Below are positions 36,992 to 64,000 of a stretch of 64,000 nt of DNA, one piece after another. The notes under the pieces were generated by a model. It did not search any database, was not told the DNA's origin, and saw nothing but the letters and a program-made list of their open reading frames with translations. This DNA comes from Deltaproteobacteria bacterium. GTDB lineage: Bacteria; Desulfobacterota_D; UBA1144; Nemesobacterales; CSP1-2. A program made the translations under genes and the position numbers. The first letter of the stretch is position 1. Every line of letters starts with the position of its first letter. The stretch is from contig JBQTHB010000002.1 in NCBI GenBank assembly GCA_052390235.1, positions 1-64,000 on the forward strand, read 5' to 3'.

Positions 36992-37330
36992 AGCGCCCCT
37001 CTCCCTCACTTCTGTCATTCCGAACGCCGAGAGAAATCTTATGACGCAGGATTTCTCGCTATGGCTCGAAATGACACCAGAGGACTCGAAAGGGCAGGGG
37101 GCGGAGTCAAGCTCTGGATTCCCACTTTCGTGAGAATGACAGAAGAGGCTCCCGCTCGGCATGAAGCGCCCCTCTCCCTCACTTCTGCCGTTCCAGCAAG
37201 CCATCACCCTCTGTCATTCCCGCAATTTCTCTGAGCGGGAATCCAAGTTAAGATTTCTCGCTATGGCTCGAAATGACACCAGAGGACTCGAAAGGGCAGG
37301 GGGCGGAGTCAAGCTCTGGATTCCCACTTT
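36992..37330. repeat. Mosaic palindromic repeat cluster (inverted orientation) containing an exact 79-bp direct repeat
   Basis: 37050-37128 is identical to 37252-37330; same modules as the other clusters. Confidence 0.92.
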
Positions 37331-41953: not shown

Positions 41954-42380
41954 GTTCGACTCCGCTCCCTTCGACGTGGTTTATTTATAGTGAGCGGAGT
42001 CGAACTACTCAGTGTGAAAATGAAGTGGATTCCCGCTCAGGAGGCTTGCGGGAATGACAGAGGGTGATGACCTGCGGGAATGACAACCCTTTGCGTCATT
42101 TCGCCTCTTCGCCCCTATCACTTCGAGTCTTCTGCTGTCATTTTGAGCCGAAGGGCGAGAAATCCTGCGTTTTAAGATTTCTCTCGGCGTTCGGAATGAC
42201 AGATTCGGAATGACAGAAGTGAGGGAGAGGGGCGCTTCATGCCGAGCGGGAGCCTCTTGTGTCATTCTCACGAAAGTGGGAATCTACAGTTCGACCAAGC
42301 TCCCTTAGACACCGCTCAGTGTGAAAATGAAGTGGATTCCCGCTCAGTAGGCTTGCGGGAATGACACAGGGTAATGACTT
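41954..42380. repeat. Mosaic palindromic repeat cluster
   Basis: GGATTCCCGCTCAG..TTGCGGGAATGACA at 42027 and 42334 with the other modules between; hairpin GTTCGACTCCGCTC/GAGCGGAGTCGAAC at 41954-42005. Confidence 0.92.
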
Positions 42381-50213: not shown

Positions 50214-50312
50214 ATCCCCCCATGCGAGAAATCCGCAACGGAGGCAATTTTTTAATGAGCGTTGTGGCAACCAAGCGCTAGCCCTTAATTTACTATAATT
50301 CATCTCAAAATT

Positions 50313-50582
50313 TGTCATTTCGAGCCGAAGGGCGAGAAATCTCAAATAAGATTCCTCTCTGCGTTCGGAATGACAGAAGTGGGGCTTGCGGAGTGGCAGC
50401 AGTGAGGAGTTCGGAGTGGCAGAAGGTGAGAGAGAGGGACACTTGATACCGAGCGATAGCCTCTTGTGTCATTCTCACGAAAGTGGGAATCCATAGCTCG
50501 GCTCCGCTCAGGGTGAAGAGAATTGGATTCCCGCTCAGATGATTTGCGGGAATGACAGGAGTGAGGCTTGCGGAGTGGCAGA
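50313..50582. repeat. Mosaic palindromic repeat cluster
   Basis: Full module series from TGTCATTTCGAGCCGAAGGGCGAGAAATC to GGATTCCCGCTCAGATGATTTGCGGGAATGACA. Confidence 0.92.
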
Positions 50583-50684
50583 AGCTCTGTCGCCCCGCTT
50601 TTGCTCATACTCATTTGGGATATTCCCTCGCAATGGCACTTTGAGGTAGCTCCTAATCATAATCACCGCTTTTCATCTCGAACC

Positions 50685-54519: not shown

Positions 54520-55628
54520 AAGTCGCTCTGATACGCAACGTTGAGGAGGCGAGGAGCCTCAGTATGCCCTTCTACGCAGACTCACTTCGGGACGCGCTTA
54601 GGGATTTGTGCGAAGTGCAGGACGCCCGGTTCCGTCCCGATTCCCTACACAGGCTAGCCTCTCTCGCAGGCGCGCGCGCTGGGGATTACGCGGGGCGATT
54701 TGTGAGCTTCCCGAAGCAGCTGCGCTCTCTTCGGGCGGATGTGTTTCACATTGCCGACCACTCAAACGCACATTTTATCCGCTCACTAGATGCCGAGGCG
54801 ACGGTTGTAACTTGCCACGATTTGATGCTCCTCAAGCTCGCCTCTGGCGAGATTCCCTCAAATGGCGCAGTCCCCCGAATTGCGCTTCGCGCTTTTAGCT
54901 GGAGCGTCGGGCATCTGTGCCGGGCGAGGGTCGTCCTGTGCGATTCGGAGTCAACCAAGCGGGACGTAATAAAATTTCTCGGATGCCCTGACGAGCGTCT
55001 CAAAGTTGCCTATATCGGGATTCACGAGGCATTCCGCCCTATTGGGGACGCCGCCCTCATCGCTTCTGCCCGCGCCCGCTTTGGCTTCGATTCGCCGCTA
55101 ACGGTGGTGCACGCGGGCAACTGCTCGTTTTATAAGAATTTAGAAGGGGTCATTAATGCGTTCTCGCTTCTGCCGCCGGGGATTCGCGCTAGGGCAAGGC
55201 TCGTGAAGGTCGGCGCTGATTTTTCCCCTGAGCAGTGGAGGCTGATTCAAAGGCGCGGTATTGCCCAGAGGGTGAGCTACTTGGGCAGGCTCTCTGTGCC
55301 GGATTTAGCCCTAGCCTACGGCTCTGCGGGAATACTGCTCTTTCCCTCTTTATATGAGGGGTTCGGCTGGCCCCCGCTGGAGGCTATGGCTTGCGGCCTG
55401 CCGGTCGTCTGCTCGGACAGAGGCTCTCTGGGGGAAGTAGTAGGGGACGCGGCGGCGATAGTTGACCCAGACAGTCCCGAATCCATCGCCGAGGGGGTTC
55501 GCATCGCCTTAGATGACGACGAATTCAGGCGGGGGCTCATTGCCAGAGGCTTCGAGAGGGTGAAACTCTTTAGTTGGCACAGTGCCGCGAGGCAGGTTTT
55601 GGAGGCTTACCGAGAGTGCGTATCCTGA
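54516..55628 (+). CDS. Glycosyltransferase family 4 (WbaZ/MtfB-like)
   Basis: TCHDL, YKN, FPSLYEGFGWPPLEAMACG. Confidence 0.9.
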   Translation: MKVALIRNVEEARSLSMPFYADSLRDALRDLCEVQDARFRPDSLHRLASLAGARAGDYAGRFVSFPKQLRSLRADVFHIADHSNAHFIRSLDAEATVVTCHDLMLLKLASGEIPSNGAVPRIALRAFSWSVGHLCRARVVLCDSESTKRDVIKFLGCPDERLKVAYIGIHEAFRPIGDAALIASARARFGFDSPLTVVHAGNCSFYKNLEGVINAFSLLPPGIRARARLVKVGADFSPEQWRLIQRRGIAQRVSYLGRLSVPDLALAYGSAGILLFPSLYEGFGWPPLEAMACGLPVVCSDRGSLGEVVGDAAAIVDPDSPESIAEGVRIALDDDEFRRGLIARGFERVKLFSWHSAARQVLEAYRECVS

Positions 55629-56785
55629 TTTCCGTGCAGAATTATCACCCCGCCTATTCGTTTGGCGGCAGGGTGGTAAAATCCACAGCCGTCGCCGAGG
55701 GACTCGCAAAGCTCGGACACGAGGTCTCGGTCGTAACCTCAAGCGTTATTGACCGCGAGACAAAGCCCGCCTTTTTCACCCGCCGCGAGTCCGTAAACGG
55801 GGTATCGGTTATATATCTCGGCACGTGGCTCCGGTTCTCGCAGATTTCGCTGAACCCTTCTGCGCTTCGTTTTGCCCTCTCGGAGGTCAAAAAATACGAC
55901 GCCGTCTATATCGTGGGACTCTATGACGCCATCTCGCCGTTGGTAGCCCTTGCCGCCCGCAGAGCAAGAATCCCTTATATAGTCGAGCCGAGCGGAATGC
56001 TCATTCCCATTGTGAGGAGCCTGAGGCTCAAGCGCGCGTATCATAAAATCATCGGTTCATGGATGCTGAGAGACGCCCACGCCGTGTTCTATACGTCTCA
56101 AATCGAGCATGACGAGGCGGTAGGGTTCGGAATCGCTCCTGAGAAATTATTGCTCTCGCCGAACGGGATAAATTTAGGCGATTATAAATCCCTCCCCACG
56201 CGAGGCGCGTTCCGAAGGTGCTACGAGATACCCGAGGGGTCTTCTCTTGTTCTCTCGCTTGGGCGGATTGAGCAGAAAAAGAATCTGGAGGAGCTATTTC
56301 GCGCCGTCGCCGGGCTAAGGAGTCTCGATTTCTTTTTGGCGGTTGTGGGTCCATCGGAGTCCGAGGGGTACTTGAATAAATTGAAGCGTCTCGCCTCAGA
56401 GCTTCAAATTGAGCCGCGGGTTCGGTTTATTCCGACTCTACTGGGAGAGGAAAAACTCTCGGCTTACGTTGACGCGGACATATTCGCAATAGTTTCTATT
56501 AACGAAAATTGGGGGATTACCGCAACCGAGGCGATAGCCTGCGGTCTGCCGGTCGTGGTTACGGACACGTGCGGAGTCGCCGAGGTAGTTGAGGGGCGCG
56601 CGGGGCTTGTCGTAAAGCGGGACGCCGCCTCCATCCGCGAGGGAATCGAGAAACTGTCTGCGGACGACGGGCTTCGGGCAGAAATTAAGGCGCGTCTGCC
56701 AGAGGTAGCAGGCGGGCTGTCGTGGGATAGCAAGGTGTCTCAGTTGGCGCGGATATTCTCATTCCTGATAGCGATGCCGGATTAA
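55616..56785 (+). CDS. Glycosyltransferase family 4
   Basis: PNGI, LGRIEQKKN, ENWGITATEAIACG; GTG start at 55616. Confidence 0.9.
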   Translation: MRILISVQNYHPAYSFGGRVVKSTAVAEGLAKLGHEVSVVTSSVIDRETKPAFFTRRESVNGVSVIYLGTWLRFSQISLNPSALRFALSEVKKYDAVYIVGLYDAISPLVALAARRARIPYIVEPSGMLIPIVRSLRLKRAYHKIIGSWMLRDAHAVFYTSQIEHDEAVGFGIAPEKLLLSPNGINLGDYKSLPTRGAFRRCYEIPEGSSLVLSLGRIEQKKNLEELFRAVAGLRSLDFFLAVVGPSESEGYLNKLKRLASELQIEPRVRFIPTLLGEEKLSAYVDADIFAIVSINENWGITATEAIACGLPVVVTDTCGVAEVVEGRAGLVVKRDAASIREGIEKLSADDGLRAEIKARLPEVAGGLSWDSKVSQLARIFSFLIAMPD

Positions 56786-56801: not shown

Positions 56802-57335
56802 GAGTGGGGCAATTCACGAGGGAGAGGTGGACGCTTCCTACCGAGCGGGATACTCGTATGTCATTCTCACGAAAGCGGGAATCCAGAGCTTGACTCCGCT
56901 CACTATGAAGAGAAATGCTCGGTATGAAGAGAAGTGGATTCCCGCTCAGATGACCTGCGGGAATGACAGACTCTCTGTGATTTCGCCCCTTCGCCCTCTG
57001 TTCTTTCGAGTCTCCCGTTGTCATTTCGATGGAGCGTGTTAGCGACTGAGAAATCTTATGGCGAGAAATCCTGAATAAGATTCCTCTCTGTGGTCGGAAT
57101 GACAGAGTTGATGCGTTCGGAATGACAGGAGCGAGAGGCTTGCGGAGTGGGGCAATTGACGCAGGGGAGGGAGCGCTTCCTACCGAGCGGGATACTCGTG
57201 TGTCATTCTCACGAAAGTGGGAATCCAGAGCTTGACTCCGCTCACTATGAAGAGAAATGCTCGGTATGAAGAGAAGTGGATTCCCGCTCAGATGATTTGC
57301 GGGAATGACAGAAGCGAGAGGCTTGCGGAGTGGGA
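56802..57335. repeat. Mosaic palindromic repeat cluster containing a 139-bp direct repeat
   Basis: 56832-56970 versus 57174-57312, 4 mismatches. Confidence 0.92.
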
Positions 57336-57465: not shown

Positions 57466-58461
57466 GTGTCTCAGCATCGCCGAGTAGCGCTTAAATCGAG
57501 CGGAGAAAACCTAGCCGCCGCCGTCCGTTCCGCGCTTATGGAGTCAGGGATTCTCTCTAGCATCAGCCGGACTTCGAGAGTAGCTCTGAAGCCAAATCTG
57601 ACCTATCCGTACTACAAAAAGGGGGTAACTACGTCCCCTGCGGTCATCCGCGAGACGGTCAAAATCCTGCGCGAATATACGGATTTCATCGCCATAGTTG
57701 AGTCCGACGGGGGCTACGGAGCCTGGGAAGCGCCGGAGGCGTTTCGGGGGCATAATCTGTATTCTCTGGCAGAGGAATATGGGGCAGAGGTCATAAACCT
57801 GTGCGCCGAGGGCGAGGAGCGAGAATTCATAGCTGTAAAGTCTCGTGGCTCGGAGTATCAAATCCCGCTGCCACGCCGACTTTTGAGGGAAACCGATTTG
57901 CTCATCACCATGCCCGTGCCGAAGATTCACTGCATGACGGGACTCACGCTCGGCTACAAGAATCAGTGGGGGTGCATCCCGGACAAAATGCGTCTCCGCT
58001 CTCACTTCGTCTTCAACGACGCTATTATCGCCATAAACCGCGCCCTGCGTCCGGCGGTGCTCGCAGACGGGACCTATTTTCTAGACCGAAATGGCCCGAT
58101 GGAAGGAGACCCCGTGCAGATGGATTTTATTATCGCCGCAACGGACGTCGGCTCGTTCGACAGGTACGCCTCTGAACTCATGGGCTGGAGTTGGCGCGAT
58201 GTGCCGCACCTAAGACGCGCCGTCGCCCTCGGGGATATGCCCGCAAATCTCGAGGAGATTGAATTCAACGTTCACCCGAAGCAGGCGTCGGGGCGGAAAT
58301 TCCGGCTTCAGCGCACCCCCCGAAATTATATTGCTCTGTCTGGCTTTCATAGCCGCTATCTCACGTGGTTTATGTATGAATCGTGGTTTGGCCGCGTTGT
58401 GCTTCATTCGATTTTTTACGCTATCGTGGGGAAACCCGTAAAGCCGAAGCCGGAGCAATAG
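57466..58461 (+). CDS. DUF362 domain protein (LarA N-domain-like)
   Basis: VALKPNL, TTSP, VES, PVPKIH..GLTLGYKNQWG, ADG..GPMEG, DVGSFD. Confidence 0.85.
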   Translation: MSQHRRVALKSSGENLAAAVRSALMESGILSSISRTSRVALKPNLTYPYYKKGVTTSPAVIRETVKILREYTDFIAIVESDGGYGAWEAPEAFRGHNLYSLAEEYGAEVINLCAEGEEREFIAVKSRGSEYQIPLPRRLLRETDLLITMPVPKIHCMTGLTLGYKNQWGCIPDKMRLRSHFVFNDAIIAINRALRPAVLADGTYFLDRNGPMEGDPVQMDFIIAATDVGSFDRYASELMGWSWRDVPHLRRAVALGDMPANLEEIEFNVHPKQASGRKFRLQRTPRNYIALSGFHSRYLTWFMYESWFGRVVLHSIFYAIVGKPVKPKPEQ

Positions 58462-58579
58462 GGCGAGTCCGGCGGCTGAGATGATACTGGATTCTCGCAT
58501 CAAATCTGCGTAAATTAGAGGACTTATGTCGGAGCTATGGCGGCGTCCGGCAAAATGCGCTTCGGAGGTTACAGTTCGG

Positions 58580-58819
58580 ATGAGATATTTAAAAGCGCTT
58601 TGGGAGTGGTGGAAGCCCCTAGCGAGAAAAATCGGCGATTTTCAGGCGCGGGTTATCCTCACGGTTTTTTATTTCGTATTTCTTTCTCCCTTCGCGCTTA
58701 TTGTCCGTTTTGCAACTGACCCCCTGGCGATAAAACCCAAAACGCCTCGGGGCTGGCTCCTCAGAGAAGATTCAGGCGCGCCTGAGGCTCAGAGGGCGAC
58801 GAAAATGTTTTCCCTTTAA
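58580..58819 (+). CDS. Small membrane protein, SxtJ-like
   Basis: W..LARKIG..QARVILTVFYF..PFALI.R..DPL...GW; directly precedes the carbamoyltransferase. Confidence 0.7.
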   Translation: MRYLKALWEWWKPLARKIGDFQARVILTVFYFVFLSPFALIVRFATDPLAIKPKTPRGWLLREDSGAPEAQRATKMFSL

Positions 58820-58836
58820 GGAGAGTTTCCCTACTG

Positions 58837-60612
58837 ATGAAAATACTCGGAATCTCATGCTATTTTCACGATGCTGCCGCCGCCCTGCTGGTTGACGGAC
58901 AGCTCGTTGCCGCCGCCGAAGAGGAGAGGTTCTCGCGCAAGAAGCACGACTACGAATTCCCGCAATTGGCAATTGATTTCTGCCTCAAAACGGCGGGGCT
59001 GAAACCATCCGACCTCGACTACGTGGTGTTTTTTGAAAAGCCGTTTGTTAAATTTGAACGTCTGCTCCTGTGCGCGATGCAGACCTTCCCGCGCTCCATT
59101 AAGCTGTTCCGCGAGGCTATGATAACCTGGCTTGGGGATAAGCTGTGGATAAAACACCTCCTTCAAAAAAAACTCGGCGTAGAGGAGTCTAAAATCCTCT
59201 TTTCAGAGCATCACCTCTCTCACGCCGCAAGCTCTTTTTACTGCTCCCCCTATGAAGAGGCGGCGATTCTCACCGTTGACGGCGTGGGCGAGTGGACTAC
59301 AGCCGCCATCGGTGTGGGCAGGGGCAATGAGATAAAGCTACTCAAAGAGATTCGGTTTCCGCATTCCCTTGGGCTTCTCTACAGCGCGTTTACGGCGTTT
59401 TTGGGGTTTGAGGTCAACGAGGGGGAATATAAAGTGATGGGAATGTCGCCGTTTGGCAAACCCAATTATGTGGATGAGGTGATGAAGCTCGTCCGAGTCC
59501 ATGACGACGGCGGGTTTGAACTCGATATGGACTATTTCTCGTTTCATTACTCCTCCGAAAAGACATTCAGCCGCAAATTCGAGGAACTCTTCGGCGAGCC
59601 TAGAGACCCGAAGTCCCTATTTTTCACCGGCGAGAGCGGATTTCCGGCGTATTTCGGACAGAAGCCCGTTGATTTTGACGAGCTTGCCCTGAGCAATCAG
59701 CGCTACGCCGATATTGCCGCGAGCATCCAAGCCGTAACCGAGGGGATTATGCTCAAAATGGCGCGCGAGGCTCGCCGCCTGACCGGTCTTACAGCGCTCT
59801 GCATGGCTGGAGGAGTCGCCCTAAACAGCGTTGCAAATGGGAAAATTCTCGCAGGCGGGGCATTTGACGAAATCTACATTCAGCCCGCCGCAGGAGACGG
59901 TGGGGCGGCTCTGGGCGCCGCTCTCTGGGCGTATCACTCCGTGCTGGGCAAACCCCGAAAATTCGTAATGCGCCATGCCTACTGGGGGGAGGAACACTCG
60001 GACTCTGAAATTGAGCAATTTCTCGCGGAGAATAAGATTGCTTATGAGAGGCTCGACGACGAGGGGATTATCCAAAGCGTCGCCGAGAGAATTAGCCGAG
60101 GGAAGGTCATAGGCTGGTTTCAGGGGCGATTTGAGTGGGGGCCCCGGGCCCTTGGCGCAAGGAGCATCCTCGCCGACCCGCGCCGTGCCGATATGAAGGA
60201 CATCGTCAATACGAAAATTAAATTCCGTGAGCCGTACCGCCCGTTTGCCCCTTCTGTGCTTGCTGAAAGGGCAGGGGAATTTTTTGATTTCCCTGAGCCT
60301 GCGCGCCACTTCCCAGCGCGATTCATGCTCTATGTAGTGAATGTAAAAGAGGATAAAAGGGCGCTTCTTCCCGCCATAACGCACGTTGACGGAACGGGTA
60401 GGCTTCAGACCGTGGACAAGGCGGCGTCCCCTCGATATTACCGCCTCATTGAGCGGTTCGGCGAGCTTACGGGCGTGCCAGTGGTGCTGAACACCTCGTT
60501 TAATCTGCGCGGAGAGCCGATAGTGAACACTCCGGCAGAGGCTTACAGCACATTCATGAGGAGCGAGATGGACGTGCTGGCGCTGGGGAATTATCTAGTG
60601 GAGAAGGTCTAA
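58837..60612 (+). CDS. NodU/CmcH family O-carbamoyltransferase
   Basis: ILGIS..HDAAA, EEERF.RKKH, HHLSHA, DGVGE, GGVALN, GPRALGARS, RPFAP, THVDG, NTSFN. Confidence 0.95.
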   Translation: MKILGISCYFHDAAAALLVDGQLVAAAEEERFSRKKHDYEFPQLAIDFCLKTAGLKPSDLDYVVFFEKPFVKFERLLLCAMQTFPRSIKLFREAMITWLGDKLWIKHLLQKKLGVEESKILFSEHHLSHAASSFYCSPYEEAAILTVDGVGEWTTAAIGVGRGNEIKLLKEIRFPHSLGLLYSAFTAFLGFEVNEGEYKVMGMSPFGKPNYVDEVMKLVRVHDDGGFELDMDYFSFHYSSEKTFSRKFEELFGEPRDPKSLFFTGESGFPAYFGQKPVDFDELALSNQRYADIAASIQAVTEGIMLKMAREARRLTGLTALCMAGGVALNSVANGKILAGGAFDEIYIQPAAGDGGAALGAALWAYHSVLGKPRKFVMRHAYWGEEHSDSEIEQFLAENKIAYERLDDEGIIQSVAERISRGKVIGWFQGRFEWGPRALGARSILADPRRADMKDIVNTKIKFREPYRPFAPSVLAERAGEFFDFPEPARHFPARFMLYVVNVKEDKRALLPAITHVDGTGRLQTVDKAASPRYYRLIERFGELTGVPVVLNTSFNLRGEPIVNTPAEAYSTFMRSEMDVLALGNYLVEKV

Positions 60613-60625
60613 TACAGTGGATTTC

Positions 60626-61040
60626 CCTCTTCGCCCCGTGTCATTTCGAGCAATAGCGAGAAATCTCAAATAAGATTCCTCTCTGCGTTCGGAATGACAG
60701 AGTTGAGAGAAGGGGGCGCTTAATACCGAGCGGATACTCGTATGTCATTCTCACGAAAGTAGAGAATCCAGAGCTTGACTCCGCTCCCTTCGGCGTAGTT
60801 TATAGTGAGCTTAGTCGAAGCGCTCGCCCTTTGACTCCGCTCAGGGTGAAGAGGAATTGGATTCCCGCTCAGATGGCTTGCGGGAATGACAGCGTGTTGA
60901 GGCGTTCGGAATGACACTCCCCTCTGCGTTATTTTGCCTCTTCGCCCCGTGTCATTTCGAGCAATAGCGAGAAATCTTGAATAAGATTCCTCTCTGGGCG
61001 TTCGGAATGACAAGAAGTGAGGTGTTCGGAATGACAGAGG
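60626..61040. repeat. Mosaic palindromic repeat cluster
   Basis: TGTCATTTCGAGCAATAGCGAGAAATCT at 60639 and 60950, with a full module series between. Confidence 0.92.
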
Positions 61041-61218
61041 TGAGAGAGGAGTGGCGGAAGCTCCGTCGCTATACTTTTGCTCATATTCACTGTGGGACAT
61101 ACCTTCGGAACGACGCGCGAGGTATTATCCTAGTATCTCATCGCCTGCCGCGCATCACTTACGGCGGCCTCTCTTAGCGTTTTTGCGGCTAGACGATATA
61201 CAATGGAGGTGGTTCACA

Positions 61219-61389
61219 ATGGGAAAATTAGGCTCTAGGCTTGGCATTGCCGGCGAGTTGCTGCAATTTTTCTGGGGGCGCAAGTGGTGGTGGATTACGC
61301 CGATGCTCATTCTGCTCATAGCCCTCGGCATATTGATAGCGTTTGCCCAAAGCTCTGCTGTTGCCCCGTTTATTTACACGCTGTTCTAA
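61219..61389 (+). CDS. 56-aa membrane micro-protein, DUF5989/SxtK-like
   Basis: GGAGG RBS; MGKLGSRLGIAGELLQFFWGRKWWWITP...SSAVAPFIYTLF. Confidence 0.85.
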   Translation: MGKLGSRLGIAGELLQFFWGRKWWWITPMLILLIALGILIAFAQSSAVAPFIYTLF

Positions 61390-61415
61390 GTTTCGCTGTT
61401 TGGAGGTTGCCTTCG

Positions 61416-62447
61416 ATGAAAAAAATTCTGCGTCTCCTCTTTCTCTCCGTATTCGGTCTCGGTGTAGGATTAATAATAGCGGAGTTCGCGTCGCGGCTTT
61501 TTCTCCCCGCGCCCGTGCCTTGGAAATTCCCCCTGCTCAGGTACGAGGTGGCGGCTGACTGCGGTTACCGGTTTCAGCCGAATAGAGAGGGATACCAGCT
61601 CTCAGGGCTTGCCCGTATCAACCGAGACGGCTTTCGCGGGGGCGATTGGGAGATTGAAAAACCTGCGGGCGTGAAGCGAATCCTAATTCTCGGCGACTCC
61701 ATGGCATTTGGCCCTGGGATGAACGACGACGAGACTTTCACCGCTCTGATGGAGGCGTCTCTGAACGAGGGCGCGCCCTTGGGAACTCGCTACGAGGTAA
61801 TGAATTTCAGCGTGCCGGGATACGACACGGGGCATGAAATCTGCATCCTTGAGCGATACGCTATGAAATTCAAGCCCGATGCCGTGTTTCTCAATTTCTA
61901 TCTCAACGACCTCATCTACGTGCGCGACTACGGCGTCTATCCGCAACTGTTTAAACAGGGGGAGAAGGCTTTTAACGAGTCCAATTGGAAACGTCGCGAG
62001 CTTATACGCAAAAGCCGCCTCGTCATGACAATTTGGGATTTGATGCAGGCGAGAGCCGAAACCCAGATGACCCGAATCGTGCGCGCTTACGTCGAGGAGG
62101 GAGTCGCTCCGCCGAAGGGCAATGAGGACGGCTGGCAGTTTGTCGAGGGCAAACTCGCAGAATTTAAGAAACTCGCATCCGGCAACGGATTCAAACCCGC
62201 CCTTGTGATTTTACCTCTACCGCAGGAGGTGCAGGGGGCCGGAGGGAAATCCACATATCCCGAATACCTTAACCTCAAAGCCTCAGCCGCCGGAATTGAT
62301 TTCATCGAGATGCTCCCCGCGCTCAAACAAAGCGGCCTCACATTCAATGAAATTTTAATCCCCTACGACAACCATCTTAACCGAGAAGGACACCGCATTG
62401 CGGCACAGGCTCTAGCTGAGGCGGCAGCGAGGATGCTCGGCGAGTAG
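61416..62447 (+). CDS. Membrane-anchored SGNH/GDSL family protein
   Basis: N-terminal TM, INRDGFRG, LGDSMAFG, YLND, DNHLNREGH; GGAGG RBS. Confidence 0.88.
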   Translation: MKKILRLLFLSVFGLGVGLIIAEFASRLFLPAPVPWKFPLLRYEVAADCGYRFQPNREGYQLSGLARINRDGFRGGDWEIEKPAGVKRILILGDSMAFGPGMNDDETFTALMEASLNEGAPLGTRYEVMNFSVPGYDTGHEICILERYAMKFKPDAVFLNFYLNDLIYVRDYGVYPQLFKQGEKAFNESNWKRRELIRKSRLVMTIWDLMQARAETQMTRIVRAYVEEGVAPPKGNEDGWQFVEGKLAEFKKLASGNGFKPALVILPLPQEVQGAGGKSTYPEYLNLKASAAGIDFIEMLPALKQSGLTFNEILIPYDNHLNREGHRIAAQALAEAAARMLGE

Positions 62448-62513
62448 TAGCGCTCTTACCCCCACTGACCCCGTTGACCAAGCGCGGGGAGACACTGAAA
62501 AAACTGAGAAATT

Positions 62514-63317
62514 ATGGACAAGATAAGCCAAAAACACGAAAAACTAATTGCCTTGATAAAACCGCTCGAGTCCGCAATCATCGCCTTTTCGGGCGGCGTT
62601 GACAGCGCGCTTGTGCTGAAAGTCGCCTTCGCCACTCTTGGGAGCAGGGCTATTGCCGCCACAGCTGACTCCCCGTCCCTGCCGAGACGAGAGCTTCGAG
62701 AGGCTCAGCGGGTTGCCGAGTCCATCGGCGCAAGGCACGTCATCATCGAGACAGGCGAGATGCAGGATGAAAATTACGCGAAGAACCCTCCTAACCGGTG
62801 CTATTTCTGCAAATCCGAGCTATATTCAAAGCTACTGAAAATCGCCGCCCGCGAGGGAATATCCCATATTCTAAACGGGACACAGTACGACGACCTCTCG
62901 GACTATCGCCCAGGGCTTCTCGCCGCATCCGAGCAAAAAATCCTCTCTCCGCTTGCCGATGCCGGACTGTCCAAATCCGAGGTAAGGGCTTTAGCCCGCC
63001 TGCTCGGTCTCGAGGTGTGGGATAAGCCCGCAAGCCCTTGCCTCTCGTCGCGGATTCCTCACGGGAGCGAGGTTACGCCTGAGAAACTCGCCGCAATTGA
63101 ATACGCCGAGGAATTCCTGCGGGGGTTCGGCATCCGAGAACTGAGAGTGCGCCACTTCGGACTCCGCGCCAGAATCGAGACGGGGAGCGAGTACTTCTCC
63201 ACAATTCGAGATAACTTCGGCGTTATCCAAGACCGCTTCAAAGCCGCCGGATTCGCCCACATTGAGCTTCGGCAGTTCAGGAGCGGCGCTCTCAATCCAG
63301 CGCGCAGGGATTCATAA
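62514..63317 (+). CDS. larE: ATP-dependent sulfur transferase LarE (nickel-pincer cofactor)
   Basis: PP-loop AFSGGVDS, NRCYFCK, DYRPG, WDKPASPCLSSRIP, LRVRH. Confidence 0.92.
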   Translation: MDKISQKHEKLIALIKPLESAIIAFSGGVDSALVLKVAFATLGSRAIAATADSPSLPRRELREAQRVAESIGARHVIIETGEMQDENYAKNPPNRCYFCKSELYSKLLKIAAREGISHILNGTQYDDLSDYRPGLLAASEQKILSPLADAGLSKSEVRALARLLGLEVWDKPASPCLSSRIPHGSEVTPEKLAAIEYAEEFLRGFGIRELRVRHFGLRARIETGSEYFSTIRDNFGVIQDRFKAAGFAHIELRQFRSGALNPARRDS

Positions 63318-63388
63318 TCCACAAAGCAGGAGGAATCCCCCTTTGCGATACTATTGAGGGGCAACCTCTCCAGCAAAACTAATAAATC

Positions 63389-64000
63389 ATGCAAAGAGAA
63401 AAAATCAGAGAAATCCTCGCCGGTGTGGAGCGCGGCGAAATTCCCGTTGACCATGCTCTAAAATCCCTTGAGAGGCTGCCTTTCGAGGACATCGCATTTG
63501 CCAATATTGACCATCACAGGGCTTTGCGCAAGGGCTTTCCCGAGGTCGTCTATTGCGAGGGCAAAACCCCAGAGCAGGCGGCGCAGATTATAGAGCGACT
63601 CTCGGAGACGGGAGACGTTCTCGCCACGCGCGCCTCGGCGGATGTTTTTCGGCTGGTTCAAACTGTAATTCCACGCGCCGAATACAGCGAAACTGCCCGT
63701 CTCATAGCCGTAAGGCAACCGGCCCAAGCAGGGGGGCGTACTCTGAAATCTGGGCTGATTCTCGTCATGAGCGCGGGAACCTCTGATATTCCCGTAGCCG
63801 AGGAAGCCGCCCTTACGGCGGAGGTCATGGGAAACCGCGTCGAACGGCTGTTCGATGTGGGAGTTGCGGGGATTCATCGCCTGTTTGCGAATAAGGCGAG
63901 AATTGACGGAGCGGCGGTGCTTGTAGTGGCTGCCGGAATGGACGGGGCGTTGCCCTCGGTTGTTTCGGGGCTAGTGTCGAAACCGGTTATTGCGGTGCCT
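63389..64000 (+). CDS. larB: Nickel-pincer cofactor biosynthesis carboxylase/hydrolase LarB (partial, runs off the window end)
   Basis: Not in the ORF track. MQREKIRE...IDHHRALRKGFPEVVYCEGKT...AGTSDIPVAEEA...DVGVAGIHRL...AGMDGALPSVVSGLV..PVIAVP. Confidence 0.93.
   Translation, partial: MQREKIREILAGVERGEIPVDHALKSLERLPFEDIAFANIDHHRALRKGFPEVVYCEGKTPEQAAQIIERLSETGDVLATRASADVFRLVQTVIPRAEYSETARLIAVRQPAQAGGRTLKSGLILVMSAGTSDIPVAEEAALTAEVMGNRVERLFDVGVAGIHRLFANKARIDGAAVLVVAAGMDGALPSVVSGLVSKPVIAVP

Follow-up and report, generated by a model that had tools for sequence, protein, structure and literature searches.

Which protein uses the cofactor nickel-pincer nucleotide (NPN) in a bacterium that carries the genes for its synthesis and has no LarA? 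This question is raised by contig JBQTHB010000002.1 of a Deltaproteobacteria bacterium (assembly GCA_052390235.1), of which the first 64,000 nucleotides were analysed, referred to here as the window. On the plus strand the window closes in a long glycan-biosynthesis cluster, in which several glycosyltransferase genes come first. The cluster also contains a gene for a DUF362 protein and, 4 kb downstream of it in the same strand-continuous cluster, a complete larE-larB-larC set:

57466–58461, plus strand: DUF362 protein, 331 amino acids, GTG start (PF04015, E 7.5e-33); single-domain and LarA-N-like, candidate nickel-pincer client
57928–58005, plus strand: segment H155...K165...H180 of this protein, aligned with LarA His174, Lys184 and His200
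62514–63317, plus strand: LarE, sulfur-insertion enzyme of nickel-pincer cofactor synthesis (TIGR00268, 2.8e-90; score 302 bits, cut-off 150 bits)
63389–64000, plus strand: LarB, 250 amino acids, cut by the end of the window and reaching contig position 64141 (NF033503, 1.3e-57)
contig 64654–65841, beyond the window: LarC (PF01969, 4e-139)

The roles of LarB, LarE and LarC in cofactor synthesis have been established (PMC11770544). Many microbes, above all cyanobacteria, have been stated to make the cofactor without having LarA, its user in them being unknown (PMC11796402; PMC13524815), and one of these two reports expects it to be a protein of a fold distinct from LarA; users other than LarA have been described, namely an enzyme of the aldo-keto reductase (AKR) fold and ornithine cyclodeaminase (PMC13524815). 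The initial annotation of the window had proposed, from a LarA-like motif, that the DUF362 protein is the local client of the cofactor. Our analysis reveals a genuine, if distant, homology of this protein to the N-domain of LarA, of which it is a shortened, single-domain relative, and it is a strong candidate for an additional client of the nickel-pincer cofactor. The client proposed earlier is thus retained on the grounds of homology, the absence of LarA, the presence of Lar pathway genes in every orthologue-bearing genome found and its standing as the only DUF362 protein of its genome, whereas the argument from the motif failed and linkage of its orthologues to lar genes turned out to be rare.

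Homology to the N-domain of LarA

The open reading frame reads ...DLLITMPVPKIHCMTGLTLGYKNQWGCIPDKMRLRSHFVF..., and H155, K165 and H180 are encoded at 57928–57930, 57958–57960 and 58003–58005, exactly where the initial annotation had placed them. The protein belongs to DUF362, matching PF04015 with 114.7 bits (cut-off 24 bits) over profile positions 1–199 of 200, and it falls outside the nearest named model, NCBIfam NF052623 (Npun_F2552 family), where it scores 64.8 bits against a cut-off of 500 bits. It likewise falls outside the LarA profile, with no Pfam match to Lar_N (PF09861), and sequence and profile searches against PDB chains gave no match or only noise; the link to LarA is therefore visible only by fold comparison and profile–profile alignment.

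An AlphaFold2 model computed from 37 orthologues (predicted local distance difference test score, pLDDT, 90; predicted template modelling score, pTM, 0.89) was compared with the PDB using Foldseek, and the top 18 matches were all members of the LarA family. With VIA-align, 12 LarA-family entries gave Z scores of 13.8–16.2 with root-mean-square deviations of 2.9–3.6 Å over 208–221 aligned residues, and the next fold, which is eIF2B-like, followed at Z 6.1. The comparison of a predicted structure with LarA, suggested in the initial annotation, thus gave a strong match, at the level of the fold, to the LarA family only. Its core extends from residue 11 to about 280 of the model and from 34 to about 266 of LarA, which is the fold of the LarA N-domain. 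Model residues 285–321 form three aromatic-rich helices (10 of 38 residues aromatic). A role of this C-terminal tail as a membrane anchor was considered and rejected, the best 19-residue Kyte–Doolittle mean being 1.13, with no outstanding amphipathic segment. Since the protein has neither a signal peptide nor a predicted membrane helix, it is predicted to be cytoplasmic and would act in the cytoplasm.

Profile–profile alignments (hhalign) were made against nine LarA homologues from related genomes. A profile of 50 diverse representatives of the subfamily aligned with a probability of 62% (E 7.4e-5) and one of 79 still more diverse DUF362 sequences with 85.6% (E 5.6e-6), and both runs gave one and the same register, in which the counterparts of H155, K165 and H180 are His174, Lys184 and His200. 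In LarA, His174 is catalytic, Lys184 tethers the cofactor and His200 is the nickel ligand; these roles and the residue numbers, with those of His108 and Arg75, are taken from PMC11770544, and the Lactobacillus plantarum numbering was checked by counting in a printed 6C1W/5HUQ alignment; the numbers given in the initial annotation for the three aligned residues agree with both. The L. plantarum LarA string given alongside them was slightly wrong: it reads ...GFIESHFFAGFSGGRK, the -EPH- form being that of the Thermoanaerobacterium enzyme. Pfam clan CL0471 holds both DUF362 and DUF2088 (LarA), and DUF362 sequences form the outgroup in a LarA tree of the Desguin laboratory (PMC11770544). Because the two families share a clan, the fold matches at Z of about 16 and the same register was obtained twice, the likeness of the H/K/H motifs reflects homology and goes beyond chance.

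H155, K165 and H180 are invariant in the 37 orthologues, the sequences of which share 82 invariant positions, and of 50 diverse relatives, all have K165 and at least 90% have each of the two histidines. The orthologues come from records with the labels Spirochaetia, Dadabacteria, cyanobacteria, Verrucomicrobiota, Chloroflexota, Acidobacteriota and Aminicenantes, across which identity is 60–77%; at two more distant loci, from Nitrospirae and Bacteroidota, it is 38–39%. The culturable Chlorogloea sp. CCALA 695 is one of the holders. DUF362 at large comprises 3915 cluster representatives at E values up to 0.001.

Occurrence with Lar pathway genes

The initial annotation had noted that the window contains no canonical larA. 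This also applies to the genome as a whole, since PF09861 matches nothing in its assembly (2.285 Mb, 9 contigs, 99.81% complete). The genome encodes one LarC, located downstream, where the initial annotation had advised a check for larC, and one DUF362 protein, the product of the gene at 57466–58461; a match to the ornithine-cyclodeaminase family was not found in this genome.

An orthologue of the DUF362 protein was found in 16 other genomes, and 14 of these have LarB above the cut-off, while the other two have LarC and LarE. Lar pathway genes are hence present in 17 of 17 orthologue-bearing genomes, our own included, which bears out the co-occurrence that the initial annotation had put forward for examination, and no case of this subfamily in a genome without Lar genes has been seen so far. 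Seven of the 17, again with our own, lack LarA, and three of these (our own, G001 and G004) encode no DUF362 protein besides the orthologue. Within a sample of 120 genomes from the same phylum, four carry the orthologue and eight LarB, all of them inside one taxonomic family of 15 genomes, to which our genome belongs. The eight LarB-positive members of this family divide into five with LarA, two with the orthologue and one with both, and six of the 15 genomes have none of LarA, LarB and the orthologue; a further member (G003, 95% complete) has LarA, the orthologue, LarC and LarE, and no LarB. In both LarB-positive, LarA-negative members larE-larB-larC lies within the DUF362 glycan cluster, and no other candidate client is common to these two clusters.

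A similar relation was seen with more distant DUF362 proteins. Of 301 sampled cyanobacterial genomes, 103 have a DUF362 relative, defined by a match to the 50-sequence profile at E 1e-10 or lower, 171 have LarB and 6 have LarA. LarB is present in 102 of the 103 genomes with a relative and in 69 of the 198 without (both, 102; DUF362 only, 1; LarB only, 69; neither, 129; uncorrected Fisher P=2e-32). The relatives, of about 320–350 amino acids, are carried by 98 of the 165 LarB-positive, LarA-negative genomes and retain K153, H155, K165, N166, H180 and D201. The remaining 67 genomes, many of them small (1.7–2.2 Mb), have LarB but neither LarA nor a relative, and for this reason at least one further cofactor client is to be expected in the Cyanobacteria. 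Synechococcus elongatus, a culturable species used as a control, has a DUF362 protein together with LarB and LarC, and no LarA.

Among 301 genomes of Bacteroidota, LarB was found in 32 and DUF362 in 55, the latter in 28 of 32 LarB-positive versus 27 of 269 LarB-negative genomes. Two length classes of DUF362 behave oppositely here, that of 370–420 amino acids occurring nearly always with LarB and that of about 305–330 amino acids often without it. The longer class was found in 26 genomes, 25 of which are LarB-positive, the triad is present in all 20 + 2 members examined, and four of the five LarB-positive genomes that have this class as their only DUF362 lack LarA. A DUF362 gene lies 2.4–4 kb from larB in three genomes (G604, G645 and G653). 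The shorter class has a twin-arginine (Tat)-type N terminus in nine of nine N-termini inspected, and keeps K153, H155, K165, N166 and a nearby His. A first alignment had suggested that LarB-independent DUF362 proteins of Bacteroidota are without an H180-type His; this was contradicted by a wider set, which shows a conserved His one column off, in 'WH(R/K)ND', and H180 was dropped as a marker of cofactor use.

Nesting within LarB-positive genomes thus recurs in three DUF362 subfamilies from three phyla. Since the set of genomes with the putative client lies inside the set with the cofactor-making protein, these patterns match what would be predicted for a cofactor-dependent enzyme.

Gene neighbourhood and layout of the cluster

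Besides the DUF362 and lar genes, the following features belong to the end of the window and the adjoining part of the contig:

55574–56785, plus strand: glycosyltransferase of the GT4 type (Glycos_transf_1), open reading frame call; conserved partner upstream of the DUF362 gene
56820–57320, no strand assigned: modular intergenic repeats, families D1–D4, with units containing GGAATGACAG, between the GT4 and DUF362 genes
58526–58819, plus strand: small SxtJ-like protein, 97 amino acids, carbamoyltransferase companion (PF19588, E 1.5e-4; 22.9 bits, slightly below the 24.4-bit cut-off)
58837–60612, plus strand: carbamoyltransferase CT1, NodU/CmcH type, 591 amino acids (Carbam_trans_N, 2.2e-80; Carbam_trans_C, 2.8e-71)
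61219–61389, plus strand: DUF5989 small membrane protein, about 56 amino acids from an internal ATG (PF19451, E 9.2e-18)
61416–62447, plus strand: protein of the SGNH/GDSL family, hydrophobic segment at the N terminus (Lipase_GDSL_2, E 1.5e-9)
contig 65846–67567, beyond the window: second carbamoyltransferase CT2, 4 bp after LarC (Carbam_trans_N/C)

CT2 is followed on the contig by genes for a GT2 glycosyltransferase, a GDP-mannose 4,6-dehydratase, an epimerase of the short-chain dehydrogenase/reductase (SDR) family and an initiating sugar transferase (Bac_transf). Because glycan genes continue past LarC, the lar genes are embedded in the glycan cluster rather than merely adjacent to it, and the view in the initial annotation that larE and larB continue this cluster is correct.

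In the other genomes, the orthologue is accompanied by two types of gene. Among the 16 genome loci, a GT4 gene is its immediate upstream neighbour in 12 and its immediate downstream neighbour in two more, and in five loci, two of them cyanobacterial, this GT4 is orthologous to that of the window (50–61% identity). A CT2-type carbamoyltransferase directly follows the orthologue in four of the 16. Of at least 525 metagenome loci we considered the best 80, and 38 of these 80 reach 5 kb or more on one side; a carbamoyltransferase is present in 13 of the 80, mostly 36–194 bp downstream of the orthologue. No partner other than GT4 and carbamoyltransferase was conserved among the orthologue loci. In two loci from Acidobacteriota (L014 8386–9896 and L015 7562–9187), the orthologue is preceded by HisH/HisF-like amidotransferase and cyclase genes in place of a GT4. 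Amidotransferase and cyclase genes of this kind are typical of acetamidino-sugar synthesis.

The gap of 680 bp between the GT4 and DUF362 genes is filled with repeats, and the same modular family occupies other gaps between gene blocks of the window (37012–37220, 42051–42216, 50298–50615 and 60620–61090), with further copies in the larB–larC gap and behind CT2 (L003 476–485 and 3757–3766). For the 10-mer GGAATGACAG, the window has 14 occurrences where 0.1 would be expected. The block formed by the SxtJ-like protein, CT1, DUF5989, SGNH, larE, larB and larC genes sits between the DUF362 gene and CT2, with repeat copies at its borders, and it looks like an insertion into the usual DUF362–CT2 pair. 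As copies bound the block with CT1 and the lar genes, the intergenic repeats may mark cassette junctions. Scans for promoters and terminators gave counts not above those in shuffled sequences.

Three smaller observations concern individual proteins of the cluster. Of the three cysteines of LarE, C96 and C99 form a CxxC motif and the third is C176; this pattern presumably agrees with a non-sacrificial, [4Fe-4S]-dependent LarE rather than with the single-Cys L. plantarum type. CT1 is flanked by the SxtJ-like protein and the DUF5989 mini-protein (58526–61389), an arrangement which we take to resemble that of the carbamoyltransferase and its two small companions in saxitoxin clusters. The PF19451 match covers residues 65–112 of a longer open reading frame (61051–61389), and the SGNH protein also probably starts at an internal ATG.

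Proposed role and alternative explanations

We propose, with modest confidence, a function for the DUF362 protein as a LarA-like nickel-pincer enzyme of one domain, acting on a glycan intermediate and coupled to the GT4 glycosyltransferase and an O-carbamoyltransferase. According to this model, LarB, LarE and LarC would supply the cofactor to the DUF362 protein, where it would be carried, covalently or not, by K165, with H180 as the putative nickel ligand and H155 as the putative acid/base. Hydride transfer to and from the cofactor would allow the transient oxidation of a C-OH group on a sugar or sugar-acid intermediate, the outcome being an epimerization or a redox isomerization, and the product may then pass to the upstream GT4 and to the O-carbamoyltransferase, whose gene comes directly after the orthologue in many loci. 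A single catalytic His has a precedent in LarA homologues linked with carbohydrate metabolism (PMC12611868).

The data suggest that a half-size relative of LarA, overlooked by LarA profile searches, is the user in cofactor makers that lack LarA. In a wider form of the proposal, DUF362 would constitute a second, single-domain nickel-pincer branch accounting for a large share of orphan larBCE systems, with the glycan subfamily readying a sugar for GT4 and for O-carbamoylation; we hold this more tentatively and judge it to fall slightly short of an even chance. If true, this would carry a rare organometallic cofactor beyond 2-hydroxy-acid racemization into glycan biosynthesis, and a large family of unknown function would gain a cofactor.

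A number of observations weigh against the proposed role. The triad, together with K42, N44, K153, N166 and D201, is conserved across DUF362 generally, the Tat-type class occurs in 22 LarB-less Bacteroidota genomes, and the Bacteroides thetaiotaomicron control genome has DUF362 and neither LarB nor LarC. As the triad is kept in LarB-less genomes, the conserved site can serve without NPN, and the motif by itself is no evidence for the cofactor; from the original argument, the alignment with LarA through homology therefore stands, and the reading of the motif as a mark of cofactor use does not. In addition, lar genes lie within 10 kb of the orthologue in only one of the 16 other genome loci and near it in none of the 80 from metagenomes, ten of the 16 other genomes have LarA, which would alone be sufficient to explain their Lar genes, and the co-occurrence counts ignore shared ancestry, being uncorrected for phylogeny. 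With regard to the homology, the alignment probabilities of 62% and 86% are moderate and the residue pairing comes from these profile–profile alignments. The C-domain of LarA (about 270–424) has no counterpart in a protein that ends at residue 331. No His is found at the position of LarA His108 (Y84 or an insertion; the segment ESDGGYGAW is without His), so that of the two catalytic histidines only His174 is matched, by H155, and Arg75 of the cofactor-binding D-x-T-R-P motif of LarA aligns with Y47 in one hhalign run and with K52 in the other. Lastly, three aldo-keto reductases are encoded elsewhere in our genome, and proteins of this fold are by now among the known users of the cofactor (PMC13524815).

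Some of these points would be accounted for if DUF362 were a glycan enzyme that works without the nickel-pincer cofactor, its Lys/His site binding another ligand or metal, as this site must do in DUF362 proteins of genomes that have no lar genes, and larEBC serving a client not yet recognized. A family-wide triad that persists in the 22 LarB-less genomes, the gene content of B. thetaiotaomicron, the lack of a nearby lar gene in 80 of 80 metagenome and 15 of 16 genome loci, and the fact that the steady partners of the orthologue are GT4 and carbamoyltransferase rather than lar genes are all in line with this explanation, which we regard as unlikely but the most serious of the alternatives. It does not readily explain why Lar pathway genes accompany the orthologue in every one of the 17 genomes, why both LarA-less members of our own family have put larEBC into the DUF362 cluster while these two clusters share no alternative candidate client, or why nesting within LarB-positive genomes is seen for three DUF362 subfamilies from three phyla.

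The aldo-keto reductases raise the different possibility that the cofactor is used elsewhere in the cell, by an NphT-like AKR-type or another non-LarA enzyme, and that the DUF362 gene is a mere neighbour. AKR-fold enzymes that depend on the nickel-pincer mononucleotide (NPMN) exist and co-occur with larBCE (PMC13524815). The AKR genes of our genome, however, are on other contigs or 85 kb away, two of the three proteins were examined and found to match best to canonical NAD(P)H-dependent AKR structures, and the tracking of LarB by DUF362 subfamilies would be left unexplained; we therefore consider this improbable. Still less probable, in our view, is that the DUF362 protein binds the cofactor as a carrier, storage or delivery protein, with another enzyme of the cluster as the catalyst. 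The lack of the LarA C-domain, which closes the active site in LarA, and of a second catalytic His would suit such a function. It is at odds with the very strong conservation of the protein (60–77% identity across phyla and 82 invariant positions), which includes the equivalent of His174, and with the lack of any conserved partner apart from GT4 and carbamoyltransferase, and LarA homologues with a single His are themselves known as 'enzymes in waiting' (PMC12611868).

Comparison with known systems

The proposed single-domain nickel-pincer enzyme can be compared with its own family, with LarA and with two groups of recently described proteins. With DUF362 at large, the glycan subfamily shares a full-length domain match and the invariant K42, N44, K153, H155, K165, N166 and D201; it differs in being predicted to be cytoplasmic, in its conserved C-terminal helical tail, and in its pairing with GT4 and often with a carbamoyltransferase. 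The Tat-type class of Bacteroidota is present in many LarB-less genomes, whereas the glycan subfamily has so far been seen only with Lar genes.

LarA itself (5HUQ, 6C1W, 2YJG, 9EIA and 6D6Z) resembles the DUF362 protein in clan, in the fold of the N-domain, in the equivalents of the triad and in the company of larB, larC and larE. With about 420–430 amino acids it is longer than the DUF362 protein with its 331, in which an aromatic-rich helical tail replaces the C-domain, and its context is 2-hydroxy-acid metabolism and not glycan assembly. Covalent loading of LarA with the cofactor is reported to show as a mass shift of about +450 Da (PMC11796402). Closer in one respect are the single-His LarA homologues (9Q3J and 9Q3K; PMC12611868), which, like the DUF362 protein, have lost one catalytic His, the gene context of which suggests carbohydrate metabolism and which were among the top fold matches of our model (Z 14.6–15.3). 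These are two-domain proteins of about 450–500 amino acids for which loading with NPN has been shown (PMC12611868), whereas the DUF362 protein is a candidate for such loading, and the lost His is replaced by Asn in these homologues and by Tyr or a gap in the DUF362 protein.

In the literature full text searched, DUF362 is named alongside LarA only as the outgroup of a tree (PMC11770544), and it is not named in the main text of PMC13524815 or in the 12 of its 17 supplement files that were searched. The latter study deliberately targeted proteins without homology to LarA and describes NphT, an enzyme with a TIM-barrel AKR fold unrelated to that of the DUF362 protein, which catalyses NPMN-dependent hydride transfer on sugars (PMC13524815). 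The logic of the two cases is shared, in that genes travel with larBCE where LarA is absent and the product has a His/Lys pair (PMC13524815). The half-size, LarA-like DUF362 subfamily of glycan clusters is, as a candidate nickel-pincer enzyme, new, and would join NphT among the users of the cofactor while retaining the fold of the LarA N-domain.

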